Virus record (IMG/VR): IMGVR_UViG_3300027763_000029
DNA: 64,000 bases
Direction: 5' to 3' (one strand)
Origin: a virus
Below, one piece after another: positions 1,840 through 28,398 of this stretch. The notes below the pieces were generated by a model. The model was not told where the DNA came from. It made no database searches and was given only the letters and a program-made list of their open reading frames with translations. The translations under genes and the position numbers were made by a program. The stretch's first letter is position 1. Each line of letters opens with the position of its first letter.

Positions 1840-2966
1840 TGAGTGTTACTATTCGTCTAAGAAGAGACTCGTCAACAAACTGGACTACTATTAATCCTAT
1901 ACTCTTATTGGGCGAACCAGGATTTGAAACTGATACAAATAAGTTAAAGATAGGAAATGGAACAGATACTTGGAATAATCTTCCTTATGTTGCTAATGAC
2001 TTTTTAGGCAATAGATATTATGCTGGTCCATCGGTAACTGTTTATAAACCCAATTATGGAGATGTTGTTGACCATATTGAGGATAATCTAATTTTAACCA
2101 GAGGTCTTTGGGGACCTTTATACAACACTTTTTCTGAAACAGAAGTTAATCCGTACACATCTCCGTCTGGAGCAGAATGGAATGTTGATGGATGGGATGA
2201 TTTTAGTGATATTACTGAAAGATCATATACGACATTAAATGATGTTTTGAATAATTGGCAAATTGGTGAAGAAATTACTAATGCCAAATTAGTTATGCAT
2301 GATATTCAAAATGATAAGTATCACAAATTCGATTTTAGTTTCTGGCAACCTGGAAATCAAGAGAATAGTTTAGGTGGCGGTTTTAAATATATCAGAACAC
2401 CACTATGGGTTGATCAGCCAGAAATTACATTCGAGCACACTAGTCATGGCTCAGAAGTTGATGAAATTGATACTGGATTAGTTATAACAAGATCAAATAA
2501 TAAAGGCATCTATAATATCTTTAGCGAAACAGTTTTCAATCCATCGATCAGCCCATCAGGTACAGAATGGAATAGTGAGGGTTGGGGAGACTTAGCCGAC
2601 TTAGAAGGAAGGGAATATCAGACCTTTTATGCCGCATCAAACGGCCATCTTGGTAATCATGTATTAGATAAAGAATATGTGATGCATGATACCATCAATG
2701 ATGAGTATTACAAGATTTATTTTACTAACTGGCAAGCAGATAGCAATGGTGGAGCCGTTACTTATATCCGTCAAAAACTAAATAAGTATTATAAAGGAGA
2801 AGGTATAACTTTCTCTGATGGAACATCTCAAAAAACTGCTGGTGTAGTTAGTGATACTAATTTAGTGCCAAACTCTACACGTATAGTTAATATGGTTAGT
2901 ATTTCTCAAAGTGATTATGACTCTTTAGGAACAAAAGATCCTAGTACATTATATGTCATCCAATAA
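1839..2966 (+). CDS. Tail fibre-like protein: Mtd_N/hyaluronidase-type N-terminus plus two tandem ~120-aa domains
   Basis: IRLRRD..NW...NPIL..GEPGFETDTNKLKIGNG...W..LPY at the N-terminus, a duplicated SPSGxEWNxxGW...VMHD motif, and C-terminal SQSDYDSLGTKDPSTLYVI. Confidence 0.75.
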   Translation: MSVTIRLRRDSSTNWTTINPILLLGEPGFETDTNKLKIGNGTDTWNNLPYVANDFLGNRYYAGPSVTVYKPNYGDVVDHIEDNLILTRGLWGPLYNTFSETEVNPYTSPSGAEWNVDGWDDFSDITERSYTTLNDVLNNWQIGEEITNAKLVMHDIQNDKYHKFDFSFWQPGNQENSLGGGFKYIRTPLWVDQPEITFEHTSHGSEVDEIDTGLVITRSNNKGIYNIFSETVFNPSISPSGTEWNSEGWGDLADLEGREYQTFYAASNGHLGNHVLDKEYVMHDTINDEYYKIYFTNWQADSNGGAVTYIRQKLNKYYKGEGITFSDGTSQKTAGVVSDTNLVPNSTRIVNMVSISQSDYDSLGTKDPSTLYVIQ

Positions 2967-2979
2967 TTAAGGATCTCTC

Positions 2980-5900
2980 ATGGTAGATTTTACAATAGAG
3001 TTCTGGACTAAAATCTCTGGATCGGCTCAAACTAGTTTTTTTGCTATAGGAAATGATACATCATTAACCTACACTTCTTCAATATTAACATTGAAACTAG
3101 CTGGAAGTACCAAGTCGGGAGTAAGCGCTAGTATACCGATCAATACTTGGACACATATTGCTATCACAAGATATAACAATACTGTCAAGTTATATGTTGC
3201 TGGAGTTGCCAAAAGAACATATGTATTTACATCAGATAATATAATAGATACTTCTGGATTATTGACTATTGGAAATGCAAATTCATCGTCTTCATCAAAA
3301 AATATTAGAGGATATATTTCTAATTTTCATATAGTAAAAGGACAAGCTCTATATACTGGAAATAGCTATACTCCATCAAGAGCAGTTCCAACCCCAATAC
3401 TAGGCAGTTCTGTTTTACTAATGGATTTTTATGATAATGATACAAGATATTTGGAAGATATAAGCTCTAATCCAATCTCTAAAACTATAATTAATAGCGG
3501 TTCAGTATTTTCTTCCGATAACCCAGCTGGCGCTGGAAATCCTGGAAGTGCTGATTTTACATCGAGTCCAGCTGATTATAAAATAACAGTATCAAATGAT
3601 GGAGATTTTGCTTTTGATGTTGCGGGAGTGGATCCATCTCCTACTCCAACAGCTACAATAACTCCAACAATAACAAAAAGTCCAACAGTAACACCTACAA
3701 TAACTCCTACTAATAGCCAACCATCTCATGGATATTGTACCTATGAATGGAACTCAAGTGAATCGGTATGGAATAATATTTTAACTAACTGTGATGTAGG
3801 ATATGAGTGCGGTGGTGTCCCAGGATTTAATGGAACATTTAATGGACAAAGAGTAAATGTGTCATGTGTTTATTCTGGCACTCCAGCAGTAACACCAACA
3901 CCAACGCATACTCCAGCAGTAACTACGAGTATAACTCCAACAATTACTAAAACAATAACACTAACTCCTACTATAAGTAGTCCAATAAGAGGATATTGTA
4001 CTTATGAGTGGAATTCCAGTGAATCAGTATGGAATAATATTTTAACTAATTGTGCTCAAGGATTTTATTGTGGTAATCAACCTGGCTTTAATGGAACATT
4101 CAATGGTCAAAGAGTTAATGTAGATTGCGTATCTGAACCAACCTCAACTCCTACTGTAACTCCAACCTCAACTCCAAGTAATTTTGCTCCATATCCATAT
4201 ACAATAAAATATAGAGAAGCTGATGGCTCAAATAATAAGTATGGTTGGGTTGATAATGAAACAGCTTGTACTTTAGAATCAGAGGGCTGGGGAGAAATAA
4301 CAATATATTCTCCAAGTTCAATATTTACTAATAGTATGAGTTTTTATTTGGATTCTTCAGGATCACAAATTGTTAATGTGGTTGCAAACCAATATTATTA
4401 TTATTCAAATGAAAATAAATCATTTATGTGGGTTTCGGGAAATACTATTTCAAATATAGCAGCTTGTAATACTTGTGACTCAGTTGCTTTGGTTGGTCTT
4501 AATGCTAATACGACTTCAAATTCTGCAATTAGTACCCACGGAGGAGGATGGACAGCATCAGCATATTCTACAGAAACTTATACTGGTCCAGTTTCAGTAA
4601 CATTTAAGACATCGGCAAGCGACAATTATTTAATGGGTGGATTCGCTTATACTCCAACTTCAAATTCAGAAACCTACATTAATACAACTTATGGTCTCTA
4701 TATACAGCCAGGATTTTTAGAGATATATGAATATGGTGGTCAAGTTAATGTTCCAGGATCTATTACTAGATCAGTAAATGATATCTGGAAAGTTGATTAT
4801 GATGGAACAAATGTTAAATATTACCAAAATAATACTTTAATTTATACTTCATCAAACCCAGTAAATCAACCACTCCATGTATTTTTTCCTCTTTTAACGG
4901 GTGGAGCGGGAGTTACAGATGTTTGTGTTGTTTCTCCACCATTGCCTAGTCCTACTCCTACTCCGACAGAAACAACCACGCCAACACCCACACCAACACC
5001 AGTCAATCCAAACGATCTAATATTTGATTCAAATTACTTGGGAGATTTTATCTTATTAAGTAATTATAACTGTACAGCCTCATTTACATCTGATGATAGT
5101 GAAAACGAAACATCCGTTTTAACAAACTATAGAATAAGTGATGGGCAAAAAGTAATTTTCAGCATGATAACAACTTATGGAAATTATGATGGTTATACCG
5201 GAGTTGGAATATCAAATCATGATTTTGACGTAAATGACTATATGGGAGTTGATACTAATTCTATAGGATTTTATGACAATGGAGATGTTTGGTATGATGA
5301 TAATGATATAATAAGTTTAGATTTAGAATTTAAAGGAAACAATAATATTGTAGACGTTGCTGTAGATAGACTTAATAATCTGATATGGATTAGGGTAGAT
5401 GGAGGATATTGGAATGGTGATGAAACACAAGACCCAGAGACAACATCGGGAGGAATAGATATCTCTGGTATTTCTGGAGATGTTTATCCTGGTGCTGGCC
5501 CATATGCTTACGATAATATCTTTGGTCAAATTTCTATTAATAATGTAATATCTAATCCCCCATCAGGATTTACTGTATTAAAAAGTTCACATGCTCCTAT
5601 TAATGAAACATTTTTTAGTCAAATATATTTAAGTAATTCTAATATAACTTCTATTAAGCTAGGAAATGATGACGTTTCTAAAATATTTTTAGGAGATGTT
5701 TTAGTATTCGGAGGTGGCCCTGACATCTGTCTCAATTCAACTTCTAGTGTTAAAATGACAGGGTGGGTTTCTGGTGATAGAATTCTTGCCCCTATTGGAT
5801 ATGCTCCTTGGGGACGCGAAACTTATACTTACGGAAATGAAACCGTTCGTTATGAAACTGGTTTATGGCTGTATACAAATACGACAAACGGAGAACTTGC

Positions 5901-22887: not shown

Positions 22888-23924
22888 TCACATACTTTAG
22901 AAGTAGTTCATATAACACACACTCAATGTGCGAGCAGCAATATTTTCTCGAATATGTTCTTGGCTATCGTGGTCCATCGGGCCAAAAAGCCGATAAAGGA
23001 ACCATAGTTCATAAAGTCTTAGAAATACTAGCAGTTATAAAAAAGGCACAGCAAGATGATGTTAAAGTTATCGATGATGATGTGGTAGGAAAAGTAAATA
23101 TCTCAAACTATAGCTTGAATGTTATTATAGAGGAAGTATATAAGCATTATTCAGAAGCTAATTCTCATCACAAGTGGGCATTGAAAGACTATAAAGATTG
23201 TCACGCATGGGTTTACAAAGCAATAGAATTTAATGATGGTATGTTCGATCCAAGGAATAGACATATACTATGTCCAGAGCAACATTTTGATATCGAGATT
23301 AAAAAACCTTGGGCAGCATATTCTTATGATACTCCAGAAGGTAAGCTAGAAGGTAATTTGGGTATTAAGGGTACTATAGACCTTATAACCTTAGTAAACG
23401 ACAATACTATTGAAATTATTGACTGGAAAACTGGTAGAAGATTAGATTGGGCGACTGGTAAGGAAAAGACCTTAGAAAAACTACAGACTGATCCACAGTT
23501 AAGAATATATCATTATGCTATTAGTCATTTGTATCCTCACATAGACCACATTATATTTTCTATCTATTTTATCAATGACGGTGGACCTTTTTCGATATGT
23601 TTTGATAAATCAGATCTTTCTAAGACAGAGGATATGTTACGTCAAAAATTTGAGGTGGTTAAGAATACAAGAAGGCCAAGACTTAATAAAACTTGGATGT
23701 GTACAAAATTATGCCATTTTGGTAAAACAACATTCGACAATACTCACATACAACCGCAAGTAGAATATAGAGAAAATCAAACTTGCAGTCTTGGTTCAAC
23801 AATGACAAAATGTGAACAAATTAAACATGATATTGATCTGAATGGTATGGATTCTGTTGTAAAAGAGTATAAGAATAAGAATCACTCATTTGCAAAGTAC
23901 AAAGCACCCGGAACCACAGAATGA
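22881..23924 (+). CDS. Cas4/RecB-like PD-(D/E)XK exonuclease
   Basis: SSSYN..SMCEQQY, GTIVHKVLE, GTIDL, IIDWKTG, QLRIY and C-terminal Cys. The start is uncertain: ATT 22881 after AGGAG, or ATG 22842. Confidence 0.8.
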   Translation: MIVTYFRSSSYNTHSMCEQQYFLEYVLGYRGPSGQKADKGTIVHKVLEILAVIKKAQQDDVKVIDDDVVGKVNISNYSLNVIIEEVYKHYSEANSHHKWALKDYKDCHAWVYKAIEFNDGMFDPRNRHILCPEQHFDIEIKKPWAAYSYDTPEGKLEGNLGIKGTIDLITLVNDNTIEIIDWKTGRRLDWATGKEKTLEKLQTDPQLRIYHYAISHLYPHIDHIIFSIYFINDGGPFSICFDKSDLSKTEDMLRQKFEVVKNTRRPRLNKTWMCTKLCHFGKTTFDNTHIQPQVEYRENQTCSLGSTMTKCEQIKHDIDLNGMDSVVKEYKNKNHSFAKYKAPGTTE

Positions 23925-23936
23925 TATTTCGGTCGC

Positions 23937-23964
23937 TTGACAACACCCGTTCGTATCGTACAAT
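23937..23964 (+). promoter_or_regulatory. Sigma70-type promoter for dnaE
   Basis: TTGACA (23937-42), 16-nt spacer, TACAAT (23959-64). Confidence 0.7.
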
Positions 23965-23984
23965 ACATCGAGTCAGTTTCTCAT

Positions 23985-24076
23985 TGACCCACCCCCAAAA
24001 TACCAAAAGAAGGAAAATAAAAGATGGACGTGAATAAGAGGTATATTCCTCTGCACGTCCATTCTTAAGTGGGTCA
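23985..24076 (+). other. Structured RNA element spanning the dnaE leader, first segment and 11-nt insert
   Basis: TGACCCAC (23985-92) pairs with GTGGGTCA (24069-76), ATGGACGTG (24024-32) with CACGTCCAT (24054-62), and AGAGG (24037-41) with CCTCT (24048-52). Confidence 0.7.
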
Positions 24077-25909
24077 CACTACTCACTTTTGGATGGACTA
24101 TCTAAGCCTGCACAAATTGCAAAAAGATGTAATACTCTTGGAGTAACTTCGTGTGCAATTACTGACCACGGAACAATATCTGGAACTGTGCAGTTTTACC
24201 AGTCAATGAAATCTAATGGTATCAAACCCATTTTAGGTTGTGAACTATATATCAGCGAAGATGATTCTCACATAAAGACTAAAGAAAATAGTAAGCTTGG
24301 ACATTTTATAGTTTTAGCTAAGAATAAAAAGGGATGGGCTAGTTTAATCAGAATAATATCTGAATCTAATAGTAAGCATAATTTTTATCATAAGCCAAGA
24401 TTGAGCTTTAATAGATTACAAGAATTCTTAGATGGTAATCTAATTGGTTTTTGTGGTCACTTAGGATCAGTATTAGCAAATAAGATACTAAGATCCAAAG
24501 ATGATTCCGAAAAAGAAGCTATTGAAATGATAGCTAAGATGAAGGATATGTTTGGTAAAGATAATTTCTTTCTAGAGTCTCAACTCATGGATAGAGAACA
24601 TATACCAGAACAGATTCAGTTAACAGATTTGATAAGAAAACTTGGATCAATAACTAAAACAAAAGTAATATGCACACCAGATGCTCATTATTGCGATAAA
24701 TCTGATGCTGTTGATCAAAGGATCCTTTTATGTAATAATCTAAAGACTACTCTTGTTGATATCAATAAAAAGATACTTAATAATGAAGATGTTCCTATGG
24801 GATGTTTTTTTAAGTCAGATAATTATTACATATTGTCTCCAGAAGAAATGGCTGATTTACACACTCAAGAAGAAATAGATAATACTAATCATGTAGATTC
24901 TATGATAGAGTCATATGATATTCTAAATAAACCTGCTCTTCCAAATTTTGAATGTCCAAAAGGATTTAATCCAGATGAATATCTAAGAGAATTATGCAGA
25001 AATGGTTGGAGAGATAAGATAGCCAATAATATTCCAAAGGATAAACAACAAATCTATGTTGATAGAATTAAGGAAGAATTGGATGTTTTGCAGGGCGCTG
25101 GGCTGTCCAGCTACTTTCTTATCATTCAAGACATACTTAACAATGTAAAGTCTAATAATTGGCTTCCGGGACCAGGAAGAGGATCTGCTGCTGGATGTTT
25201 AGTATCCTACTTAATAGGAATTACTGCTATAGATCCTATAAAGTATGATCTATTGTTCAGTAGATTTTATAATTCTGGTCGAAATACTGCTGACCGTATT
25301 TCCATGCCAGATATAGATGTTGATGTACCAATTAACAAAAGAGAAGAAATCATCTCATATATTAAAAATAAGTATGGAAGCAATAAGGTATCTCAAATGA
25401 TAACTTATAATACTATGAAAGGCCGTGGAGCCTTAAAGGAAGTATTAAGAGTATATGGCAACGTGGCATTTGAAGAGATGAATCGTATAACAAAATACAT
25501 CCCGGATGAAGCAAAAATTGCAGACGAATTGCAAGAAATGAAAGAAGATACTGGCGAAGCATCCATTATTCGTTGGGCATTAGAAAACAATGTTGACAAA
25601 CTCAAGGAGTGGTGCTATATTAATGAGGAAGGAGAATTAGCCGGTCCTCTGGCCAAGCGTTTTGAACAGGCTATTCGTTTGGAAGGAACTAAATCTAATC
25701 AATCAAAACACGCTGCTGGTATTGTAATTAGTATAGATGAATTGAGTAATGTTTGCCCCATGATTTATGATTCAAAAAATGATCAACTTATTGCGGGCAT
25801 GGAAATGCAGGACCTGGAATCTTTGGGTGTAATTAAATTTGATATTCTAGGCGTAGCTATGCTAGATAAGATTATGACTATTTCTGACCTATTAAAAAAT
25901 GGAGAATAA
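24024..25909 (+). CDS. dnaE: DNA polymerase III alpha, N-terminal part (PHP plus catalytic core), with the reading frame interrupted by an 11-nt insert near 24066-24076
   Basis: AAGGA SD, then ATG 24024 giving MDVNKRYIPLHVHS*. HYSLLDG resumes at 24077 in another frame. AITDHG, TPDAHY, GPGRGSAAG, SMPDIDVD and KFDILG follow. Confidence 0.9.
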
Positions 25910-25911
25910 CC

Positions 25912-26088
25912 ATGGAAAAGACTTTCGGTGAAGTAGCGGTAGGAGAAAATTTTAGCGTAAATGGTTCTGAGTATACCAAGGTAAATGCTGTAAAAGTTAG
26001 TTGTTGTCAGTCTATTAATGCTCATTTGGTAGATGACGCTAACTCAAGAGTATTTTTTACCGATAACCTAATGGTGGTGGTCAATTAA
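25912..26088 (+). CDS. 58-aa hypothetical protein missing from the ORF track
   Basis: GGAG SD, MEKTFGEVAVGENFSVNGSEYTKVNAVKVSCCQSINAH...VVVN*, and TAATG overlap with the exonuclease. Confidence 0.7.
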   Translation: MEKTFGEVAVGENFSVNGSEYTKVNAVKVSCCQSINAHLVDDANSRVFFTDNLMVVVN

Positions 26089-26783
26089 TGCCTAATTTTC
26101 AAAAAATTTGTGTTTTCGATCTGGAGACTGACGGTATTAATCCAGAGAAATGTAGTCCTGTTCAGATAGCTGCCATAATTATAGATCCTCTTAAACTACA
26201 AGTAGTGCCAGACTCCGAGTTTAATATTAGTATTAAGCCAGAAGCATTGATAGATAATCCAGAATATGACTATGCAGATAGTGATGTGTTGGATTTTCAT
26301 GCAAAGGTGAGAGGTTCTTCTAAAGAGGATATTCTAAAAGAATGGAAGTCTTATCAGAAGCAGGATCATGGATGGAAAATGTTTACATCATACCTGGATA
26401 TGTATCATACAAGATCCGAAAGAAAATCTTGTTTTAGTGCTCCCATTGCTGCGGGATATAACATAAATAGGTTTGATCTGAAAATTATTGAGAGACTTAG
26501 TACAAAATATGACAATCTCAATAAAGAGGGCAAGTCTAGTCTATTTTATCCTAGAGATGTTGTAGACTTGATGAATATGGTATTTTATTGGTTTGAAGGT
26601 AACAATGAGCTTAAAAATTATACTCTAGATAATCTTAGAGATTATTTAGGTATATCAAAAGAAGGTGCTCATGATGCTCTGAAAGACGTAAAAGATACTG
26701 CTGATATATTAATTAGGTTTTTAAAATTGCATAGGAATTTATCTAACAAGATAAAATTTAAGGGGTCATTTGCGAATGTCTGA
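26088..26783 (+). CDS. DEDDh 3'-5' exonuclease (DnaQ/epsilon-like)
   Basis: VFDLETDG, AGYNINRFD and HDALKD. Confidence 0.9.
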   Translation: MPNFQKICVFDLETDGINPEKCSPVQIAAIIIDPLKLQVVPDSEFNISIKPEALIDNPEYDYADSDVLDFHAKVRGSSKEDILKEWKSYQKQDHGWKMFTSYLDMYHTRSERKSCFSAPIAAGYNINRFDLKIIERLSTKYDNLNKEGKSSLFYPRDVVDLMNMVFYWFEGNNELKNYTLDNLRDYLGISKEGAHDALKDVKDTADILIRFLKLHRNLSNKIKFKGSFANV

Positions 26784-28398
26784 TTTTTTTGCGTTTGATT
26801 GCGGTTGTAAGTTTAAAGTAATAGACAATTCTGGCGATATTCCAAAAATAGATTTCTCTGCTAATATAGAGAATCTTAATTTGGAGTGTCACAGAACTTG
26901 GGACTTGATATCCGAAGGTAATACTAAAGGATGTTTTCAGTTGGAGTCTAGGCTCGGGCAAATGATGGCTAAAAAACTTAAGCCAGAAAATATTGAACAG
27001 TTATCTGGGTTGATAGCTATTCTTAGACCAGGATGCTTAGAGTCTGTAAGAGATGGCAAGAGTATTACCAATCATTATATAGATAAGAAAAATGGATTGG
27101 AAAGTATTGACTATTTTCATATGGCATTAGAACCAGCATTAAAGACAACATATGGAGAGATGATATACCAAGAAGAGAGTATGCAGATCGCCCATGATAT
27201 TGCAGGATTTGATCTGCAGGAAGCTGATATGTTAAGAAAGGCTATTGGAAAAAAGAAGCCAGAAGAAATGGCTAAATTGAAGAAAAAATTCTTAACAGGA
27301 TCCAAAGAAAAGAATATCGTAACAGAGGATCAGGCAGAAGAAATCTTTGGCTGGATTGAAAAATCACAAAGATACTCTTTCAATAAGTCACACAGTATAA
27401 GTTATGCTATGAACGCATATCTCTCAGCTTATACAAAAGCACACTTCTCCAGGATATTCTTTGCATCATATTTAAAGTTTGCTAAAGACAAGATAGATCC
27501 TCAGCAAGAGATAAAAGAATTGGCAAGAAATGCTAATGAGATGGGTATTGATGTTAGATTACCAGATCTACGCAATCTTAATAAGAATTTCTTCATTAAA
27601 GATAAGAATATATATTTTGGATTAACAGATATCAAAGGTGTTGGAGATTCTGTATTTAAAAAGTTGCTAGAACTTAATGAGCAAAAAGATATTAGTTCAT
27701 TAGGATATATTCAAAGCATCTGTCACATATTACTGAATATTAACTCAACAGCTGCAAAAGCTCTTGTTGGTAGTGGCGCTCTGGATTATTTTAGAAAAAA
27801 TAGAACTGAAATACTTTTTCATTACGAAATATTGTCATCTCTAACCAAGAAAGAGTTAGAACTATTTGCGGGCCTTATAAGTGATAAGCCTACATCAGAT
27901 ATAAAGGTCGTACTACAAGCATTGCTTAATGAAAAGATAACAAAAAAGAGAATAGAGCCAATTTCTAACTTAATAAGATCACTGGAGCATCCTCCTTATT
28001 CATTAACAGATAAGATAGAATGGTTATCTGATTCAGAAAACTCTTTTCTGGGTGTAGCCATATCTTGCTCTAAATTAGACTCTTATGATATTAGTATGAC
28101 CAATACTAATTGTAAAGAATTTAAAACTACGCTACTATCAGAAAAAATAATCTTAGCCGGTGAAGTTAGCAATGTAAATATTATTAAGACAAAAAAGGGA
28201 AAAAATCCAGGACAAGAAATGGCATTTGTTAGTGTTGAAGATGCTTATGGTCTATTGGATTCTGTTATCTTTTTCCCGGAACAATTAGAGACATATAAGC
28301 ACCATCTATTCCAAGGTAATGTGCTAATTTTTATTGGCAACAAAACAAAAACAAAGGATGGTTTGGTTGTCGATAAGTGTTTTACGCCGAGATCTTGA
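26776..28398 (+). CDS. dnaE: DNA polymerase III alpha, C-terminal part (fingers, HhH, OB fold)
   Basis: GCFQLES, ILRPG, IYQEE, ADMLRKAIGKK, YSFNKSHS, IKGVG and MAFVSVED. Confidence 0.9.
   Translation: MSDFFAFDCGCKFKVIDNSGDIPKIDFSANIENLNLECHRTWDLISEGNTKGCFQLESRLGQMMAKKLKPENIEQLSGLIAILRPGCLESVRDGKSITNHYIDKKNGLESIDYFHMALEPALKTTYGEMIYQEESMQIAHDIAGFDLQEADMLRKAIGKKKPEEMAKLKKKFLTGSKEKNIVTEDQAEEIFGWIEKSQRYSFNKSHSISYAMNAYLSAYTKAHFSRIFFASYLKFAKDKIDPQQEIKELARNANEMGIDVRLPDLRNLNKNFFIKDKNIYFGLTDIKGVGDSVFKKLLELNEQKDISSLGYIQSICHILLNINSTAAKALVGSGALDYFRKNRTEILFHYEILSSLTKKELELFAGLISDKPTSDIKVVLQALLNEKITKKRIEPISNLIRSLEHPPYSLTDKIEWLSDSENSFLGVAISCSKLDSYDISMTNTNCKEFKTTLLSEKIILAGEVSNVNIIKTKKGKNPGQEMAFVSVEDAYGLLDSVIFFPEQLETYKHHLFQGNVLIFIGNKTKTKDGLVVDKCFTPRS

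Follow-up and report, generated by a model that had tools for sequence, protein, structure and literature searches.

The predicted RNA structures at the start of dnaE, the sole replicative DNA polymerase gene of an uncultured phage, are probably the signals of a programmed ribosome hop from one serine codon to another, making up a compact bypass cassette; a probability of about 0.7 is assigned to this reading, which is built on comparative sequence analysis and modelled folds. The window, i.e., the whole 64,000-nt stretch of DNA that was analysed, carries the cassette described here, whose features are collected in Table 1.

Table 1. Features of the dnaE cassette and its surroundings in the window.
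Feature	Coordinates	Strand	Remarks
Source record			Uncultured phage, 151,782 bp; the 64,000-nt window is part of IMGVR_UViG_3300027763_000029
PD-(D/E)XK nuclease gene	ends 23924		Upstream of dnaE
Sigma-70-like promoter	23937..23964	+	TTGACA, 16 nt, TACAAT; 11/12 consensus matches; consensus match only
Leader hairpin	23972..23988	+	6 bp, at the 5´ end of the predicted leader; in the minimum free energy (MFE) fold of 23971-24110
Outer helix PX, leader strand	23985..23992	+	Exact complement of 24069-76; specific to this genome
Shine–Dalgarno (SD) sequence	24009..24014	+	GAAGGA; 9 nt before the start codon; outside all conserved helices
ORF1	24024..24065	+	14 codons (MDVNKRYIPLHVHS); take-off codon TCT 24063-65 at its end
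P1, start-codon hairpin	24024..24062	+	Lower stem 24024-32/24054-62; upper stem 24037-41/24048-52; loop 24042-47; −18.9 kcal/mol
P2 + P3, extended take-off stem-loop	24057..24098	+	P2 24057-64/24091-98; −22.7 kcal/mol
Untranslated gap	24066..24076	+	11 nt; TAA 24066-68 first, landing codon TCA 24074-76 last
P3, upper take-off stem	24067..24088	+	Gap 24067-74 with Tyr-Ser-Leu codons 24081-88; loop 24075-80; −7.7 kcal/mol
ORF2	24077..25909	+	Remainder of the N-half, with PHP and polymerase core; read in the −1 frame with respect to ORF1
dnaE C-half	26770 to 28398		After the DnaQ-like exonuclease gene

A Stop-Containing Gap within the PHP Motif of dnaE

The dnaE gene of this phage is split into an N-half and a C-half. 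Translation from the ATG at 24024 yields 14 residues, the last of which are the HVHS of the PHP motif, followed by TAA. The motif is picked up as HYSLLDG from 24077 (resume codon CAC, 24077-79) in the −1 frame, so the 11 bases 24066-76 must be skipped for the motif to be made whole. ORF2 alone matches the PHP profile (E 5e-33) from profile position 6 only, without the first five profile positions, and DNA_pol3_alpha (E 4e-72). Between the two halves (24024-28398) lie a 58-codon ORF (phrog_2183, unknown function) and then a DnaQ-like RNase_T-family exonuclease gene; Pfam gave no intein domain.

A protein similarity search gave 58 relatives, around 36 of them with a contiguous HVHS-HYSLLDG and 22 with a stop-containing gap at the identical codon. 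Taken together, ORF1 and ORF2 correspond to the contiguous N-terminus of the gap-free relatives, in all of which the spacing from HVHS to HYS is exact. The protein-search loci, combined with pattern scans of viral and metagenome contigs, provided 42 distinct cassettes. They retain the flanking codons Leu-His-Val/Cys-His-Ser and His-Tyr-Ser-Leu-Leu-Asp-Gly through synonymous changes, part of this conservation being imposed by the search pattern, which all 22 protein-search loci fit. On a FastTree tree of DnaE, the presence of the gap requires at least 7–12 changes.

The gap measures 8 nt (4 cassettes), 9 nt (10), 10 nt (10), 11 nt (17) or 12 nt (1), covering all three frame relations, and 11 of the 42 gaps are in frame yet contain a stop codon. 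Frameshifting cannot be the common mechanism because a quarter of the gaps, stop included, are in frame. The stop that opens the gap is TAA in 17 cassettes and TAG in 25, with no instance of TGA. As a side observation, TGA never opens the gap though it ends the neighbouring gene, and a stop read by RF1, or one that is read slowly, could be needed.

The take-off codon is TCT or TCC in every cassette, with six different codons at the same position in gap-free genes. The restriction of the Ser codon to TCY (43/43 versus 15/29 in gap-free genes) is suggestive, though not significant in independent contrasts. The landing triplet is TCN in 32 of the 42 cassettes (TCT to TCA in the window), always the first TCN triplet after take-off in any frame. 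The other ten land on ACT, which matches the take-off codon at two of three bases, and a full TCA overlaps it 2 nt downstream in the wrong frame. Landing on ACT is a weakness of a pure re-pairing model, which leaves it unaccounted for.

A genome-wide screen for a hairpin combined with a stop and a matched codon retrieved dnaE alone. The search of cultured-phage DNA gave zero matches, and the protein search of cultured phages gave relatives of at most 34% identity and no annotated example. No tRNA or tmRNA gene, and hence no phage tRNA-Ser, was found in the 152-kb genome, so a hop would rely on the tRNA-Ser of the host.

Conventional recoding would dispense with a hop altogether: a −1 frameshift would serve the 8- and 11-nt gaps, a +1 frameshift the 10-nt gaps and stop readthrough the 9- and 12-nt gaps, with the hairpins as stimulators and three to four residues added to the PHP motif. 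The ORF2 frame is indeed open across the 8-, 10- and 11-nt gaps, and structures beside a stop codon are typical recoding stimulators. However, close relatives would need three different mechanisms for a single site, no slippery sequence is present, and the in-frame, stop-containing gaps speak against it as well. Variation within the gap tracks base pairing rather than codons, the middle base of the landing triplet, which is unpaired, is a C in every cassette, and the exact HVHS-HYS spacing of the gap-free homologs argues against added residues. Such recoding is regarded as quite unlikely.

A Hairpin That Encloses the Start Codon

In every cassette, the CAT just ahead of the take-off codon is paired with an ATG, closing a hairpin of 33–39 nt (P1). 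An earlier note on this DNA had observed that a hairpin ends right at the take-off codon; this is correct, and it is so in all 42 cassettes. The predicted energy of P1 ranges from −12.1 to −20.1 kcal/mol (mean −17.4), whereas the corresponding stretch of 26 distinct gap-free genes, in which P1 is absent, gives 0 to −8.7 kcal/mol (mean −1.4).

The lower stem of P1 is 98.9% paired, with three doubly changed pairs, in an ungapped alignment of 29 hairpins; none of 500 shuffles matched this value and slid registers were 23–47% paired. The upper stem shifts in register, yet it is found in all 42 cassettes. The lower stem involves a short N-terminal extension (Met-Asp-Val in the window) that is restricted to cassette genes and whose codons are the complement of the His-Val-His codons. 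Where the Val codon has changed to Cys in the strand shared by the P1 and P2 helices, both its partner in the extension and its partner in P2 change to match. The hairpin accompanies the gap in seven of seven independent contrasts on the FastTree tree (p 0.016). As for a nascent-peptide signal, ORF1 of the window has only 14 residues; a basic-x-Tyr stretch recurs among the cassettes, but its Tyr belongs to the protein proper.

The Take-Off Stem-Loop and Its Competition with P1

The gap forms a second conserved stem, P3, with the Tyr-Ser-Leu codons downstream; its loop holds the last two bases of the landing codon, all of the resume codon and the base with which the Tyr codon begins. All 42 cassettes have P3, which covaries at synonymous codon positions: the pair at the Ser third base is U–A (23), C–G (4), A–U (4) or a wobble (3), that at the Tyr wobble base G–C (14) or A–U (8), and that at the Leu third base A–U (22) or U–A (12). 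Swapping gaps among downstream arms cost about 3 kcal/mol, and none of 500 permutations equalled the native P3 pairing. This covariation was obtained from alignments made within each gap-length class and from a codon-anchored count, the MAFFT alignment being unusable across classes owing to a register shift.

Stacked under P3, the P2 helix joins the Val-His-Ser codons to the Leu-Asp-Gly-Leu codons and extends over bases one and two of the take-off codon. Pairing in P2 amounts to 99.2%, and one of its pairs has changed on both sides. Each of the 42 cassettes has the extended stem-loop P2 + P3, with energies between −14 and −23 kcal/mol, and gap-free genes, which use varied Asp-Gly-Leu codons, reach a mean of −3.6 kcal/mol over the same codons.

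The folds P1 and P2 + P3 are mutually exclusive because the strand 24057-62 is common to both. Without the leader, the two differ by −0.5 ± 1.6 kcal/mol and lie within 3 kcal/mol of each other in 40 of the 42 cassettes. On the full predicted transcript of the window, extra leader pairs favour P1, with a pair probability of 0.985 for P1 versus 0.014 for P2; the modelled bistability of this particular genome thus rests on the leaderless comparison. The earlier note had also proposed an autoregulatory switch. There is one among the predicted folds, although its conserved form opposes the start-codon hairpin to the take-off stem-loop and does not involve the leader helices.

That the gap is bracketed by two helices would also suit a micro-intron, in which the 11 bases would be removed from the RNA and the flanking helices would define the cut sites, an idea likewise raised in the earlier note. 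No known splicing system removes 8–12 nt, however, and an intron has no need to open with a stop codon or to have its last three bases mimic the take-off codon, as this gap does. A search of Rfam at a permissive E-value returned only a chance match to U7, and no RtcB or Rnl ligase encoded by the phage was found. Splicing is considered extremely improbable.

On a further reading, DnaE would lack its first strand. ORF1 would then be a free 14-residue peptide, DnaE would restart at TTG 24089, and the hairpins would either tune initiation or be scars left by the insertion of an endonuclease cassette. The ORF listing does begin the long ORF at this TTG, and the separate DnaQ-like exonuclease gene could make the PHP metal site dispensable. 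Yet the amino acids encoded by the His-Tyr-Ser-Leu codons between the landing site and the TTG are kept, with compensated synonymous changes, the exact PHP motif is retained in ORF1, the TTG is CTG in two relatives (L003 and L063), and the SD-like bases in the gap stand 16 nt from the TTG. A restart of this kind is very improbable, and the programmed hop remains the preferred reading.

Two further candidates were set aside. An SD-like motif in the gap was considered as a general landing aid, but it is missing in the 8- and 9-nt gaps with CGA, and gap variation follows pairing. Reinitiation at a GTG inside the gap was rejected since only some of the 8- and 9-nt variants have this codon in frame. 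More generally, no in-frame start codon common to the cassettes lies between the stop and the His codon.

The Leader of the Window Genome

A spacer of about 100 nt, common only to the window and its relatives L001 and L003, separates the PD-(D/E)XK nuclease gene from dnaE. Transcription is predicted to start near 23971, and the resulting leader is present only in the clade of the window. An AAGGAG-like box occupies the place of the SD sequence in the other cassettes.

The complementarities on which the earlier note was built are all in the sequence: 23985-92 and 24069-76 are exact reverse complements of each other, as are 24024-32 and 24054-62, and an inner helix of 5 bp joins 24037-41 to 24048-52. 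The weak hairpin that it described in the leader is real as well, with 6 bp (23972-77/23983-88). As the note had advised, the segment 23965-24100 was folded with RNAfold, which gave −39.7 kcal/mol, whereas shuffles averaged −26.2 (z −3.97; 0/200 shuffles as good), the MFE fold holding the inner hairpin and the outer helix together. The comparison among homologs, also advised, divided the two helices. P1 is conserved well beyond chance and carries compensatory changes, and the outer helix between leader and insert (PX) is confined to this genome.

The PX duplex reaches −14.7 kcal/mol (p 0.017 versus shuffled leaders) in this genome alone; in 40 other cassettes tested, no duplex between leader and insert exceeded the shuffles (z near 0). 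In L001 and L003, which share 98% and 95% protein identity with the window, the leader differs at two of the eight positions, producing one mismatch and one G–U pair. On the transcript expected from the predicted promoter, PX has a pair probability of 0.31, compared with 0.61 for the competing P3. The leader/insert helix is therefore treated as a peculiarity of one genome, probably due to chance or at most a local modifier.

If PX were functional in this phage, enclosing P1, it would act as a lock that regulates both the gap and the start codon. Its eight perfect, GC-rich base pairs, its place in the MFE fold of 23965-24100, the lower energy of P1 + PX (−29.6 kcal/mol) versus P1 + P3 (−27.3 kcal/mol), and the fact that both leader differences from L001 and L003 improve pairing in the window are consistent with such a lock. 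On the other side, PX is missing from the other cassettes and weakened in the closest relatives, one match at this p-value in 41 tests is what chance would provide, and PX competes with the conserved P3, over which it is the less probable on the predicted transcript. The lock is accordingly unlikely. The earlier suggestion that the insert is co-adapted with the leader survives in part: that the insert is no random lesion is supported, as is the co-adaptation of the start-codon hairpin with it (seven of seven contrasts), but the leader is not supported as its partner, that pairing belonging to this genome only; the covarying partner is the downstream Tyr-Ser-Leu codons.

Proposed Mechanism of the Ser-to-Ser Hop

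In the proposed hop, the take-off fold would leave the start codon free and ribosomes would initiate. When the P site holds Ser-tRNA on TCT and the A site a stop that is read slowly (TAA/TAG), the 3´ strand of P1 would lie in the E site and exit channel, as the nine bases directly 5´ of the P-site codon. P1 would then zip up behind the ribosome, and since its 3´ strand fills those nine bases, zipping must pull about that much mRNA from the exit channel; some 9–12 nt would be drawn out as the ribosome slides forward. The peptidyl-tRNA would re-pair at the first TCN triplet and His would be decoded next. A slide of 11 nt would put 12 nt between the base of P1 and the P-site codon now 3´ of it, at which point the pull would end. 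Refolding of a hairpin behind the ribosome had been named in the earlier note as a possible force for the hop, and it is rated here as the most plausible driver.

Once formed, P1 would also hide the start codon and, more speculatively, may keep a second ribosome from interfering or from melting P1. P2 and P3 may hold the start codon accessible until ribosomes initiate, delay their arrival at the take-off codon or, as in gene 60 of phage T4, fold within the A site.

Several points count against the hop as modelled. By the time of take-off the ribosome should already contain the 5´ strands of P2 and P3, which blurs their part in the hop; a hairpin of −17 kcal/mol over the start codon should lower initiation; and a second 30S subunit could bind during the stay of the first ribosome at take-off.

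A more ambitious version is put forward tentatively, as a possibility that is rather doubtful. The cassette would be a self-contained bistable mRNA machine, one fold of which exposes the start codon while the other zips up behind the first ribosome, pulling it 8–12 nt over the stop and keeping the start closed until that ribosome leaves. If this were true, helix geometry rather than scanning would set the length of the hop, and one ribosome would be admitted at a time.

Comparison with Known Bypass Systems

Detailed knowledge of programmed bypassing comes essentially from a single system, gene 60 of phage T4, which has a 50-nt gap and is associated with the HNH element MobA; a 20-nt gap is found in an Aeromonas clade (bioRxiv 10.1101/2022.08.31.505936, 10.1101/2024.12.09.627546; PMC5009743). 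In gene 60, a 5´ stem-loop that takes shape while mRNA exits the ribosome is considered to push the ribosome forward (bioRxiv 10.1101/2022.08.31.505936, 10.1101/2024.12.09.627546; PMC5009743).

The dnaE cassette resembles gene 60 in many respects. Both have a slow stop after the take-off codon, a take-off codon on the 5´ side of a stem-loop, a second stem-loop 5´ of take-off that can form behind the ribosome and, in 32 of the 42 dnaE cassettes, a landing codon that matches the take-off codon. In both cases the gap lies within a conserved motif of a replication gene and is patchy among related phages, and, much as MobA overlaps the gene 60 cassette, an HNH gene runs into the 5´ flank of the dnaE cassette in some relatives.

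The differences are also clear. The gap is 8–12 nt in the dnaE cassette versus 50 nt in gene 60, the codons are Ser versus Gly, and the landing codon is inside the take-off stem-loop rather than beyond it. An ORF1 of only 12–14 codons would leave no room for a long nascent-peptide signal of the gene 60 type. In dnaE the 5´ hairpin takes in the start codon, reaches right up to the take-off codon (0 nt versus 9 in gene 60) and cannot coexist with the take-off stem-loop. Sequence homology with gene 60/MobA is lacking, the host gene is dnaE instead of a topoisomerase gene, and the linked HNH enzyme looks unrelated. The cassette most likely works like gene 60, judging by these analogies, without being homologous to it.

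Two other systems are described in the review PMC5009743. The stop-hops of E. coli (Weiss et al. 1987 and O'Connor et al. 1989, in PMC5009743) are, in that account, unprogrammed, low-level events in synthetic contexts without stimulatory RNA. They share with the event proposed for dnaE a short peptidyl-tRNA hop over a stop between matched codons, with at least 9 nt for one residue, whereas the dnaE site is natural, lies in an essential gene, is conserved and is flanked by covarying helices. No natural in-frame stop-hop is known according to the same review. The byp elements of Magnusiomyces mitochondria (Lang 2014 and Nosek 2015, in PMC5009743) are presented there as inserts of 27–55 nt, many per genome. 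Like the dnaE gap, they are short, stop-containing inserts in essential genes, with matched codons and a hairpin in the gap; unlike these numerous mitochondrial elements, the dnaE cassette is a single phage site with a start-codon hairpin.

Shorter natural counterparts of the gene 60 bypass have long been expected, or presumed, but were not known (PMC5009743). Full-text literature searches returned the work on gene 60, a candidate in a Streptomyces phage and reviews, with nothing on dnaE or on natural hops of 8–12 nt. The dnaE family would offer 42 natural variants of a minimal bypass comprising 14 codons, an 8–12-nt gap and three helices, in which covariation pinpoints the pairings that matter and the analysis tells conserved helices from a tempting but genome-specific one (PX). 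The proposed driver, mRNA pairing behind the ribosome, is testable in a construct of about 130 nt. For annotation, there is also a warning that gap-bearing dnaE genes of this kind are not pseudogenes.

HNH Endonuclease Link and Origin of the Cassette

Upstream of dnaE, gap-free relatives are arranged differently: the nuclease stop and the dnaE start share an ATGA. At the end of its nuclease gene (23922-23926) the window retains this ATGA, followed by the spacer with its own promoter. As the ATGA is kept but spacer and promoter now follow it, the cassette has replaced a translationally coupled dnaE start.

In four relatives of the window (L013:2248-2988, L082:1307-2050, L130 and L138), a gene for a 247-residue HNH-type endonuclease ends inside the SD and start region of the cassette. 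The encoded enzyme matches phrog_3322 (E 1e-21) and phrog_374 (E 2e-17), and a 34-residue HNH remnant is left in L113 (L113:7122-7223) and L116. No homolog of this cassette-linked gene was found in the window genome.

A more distant HNH homolog, with 28–32% identity to the L013 enzyme, precedes the PD-(D/E)XK nuclease gene in the relatives closest to the window (L001:1264-1833, L003:1341-1847) and in a phage without the gap (L050:1428-1928). It is missing from the genome of the window.

The gap-free L048 (about 2960-3010) is the sister of L036, which has a 9-nt gap. It possesses its own SD sequence, a 13-codon N-terminus and a decaying hairpin of −8.7 kcal/mol, and it looks like a cassette after precise loss of the gap. 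Together with the HNH link, which is seen in relatives of the window genome, and the patchy distribution on the tree, L048 suggests that the cassette has a mobile origin, as for gene 60.
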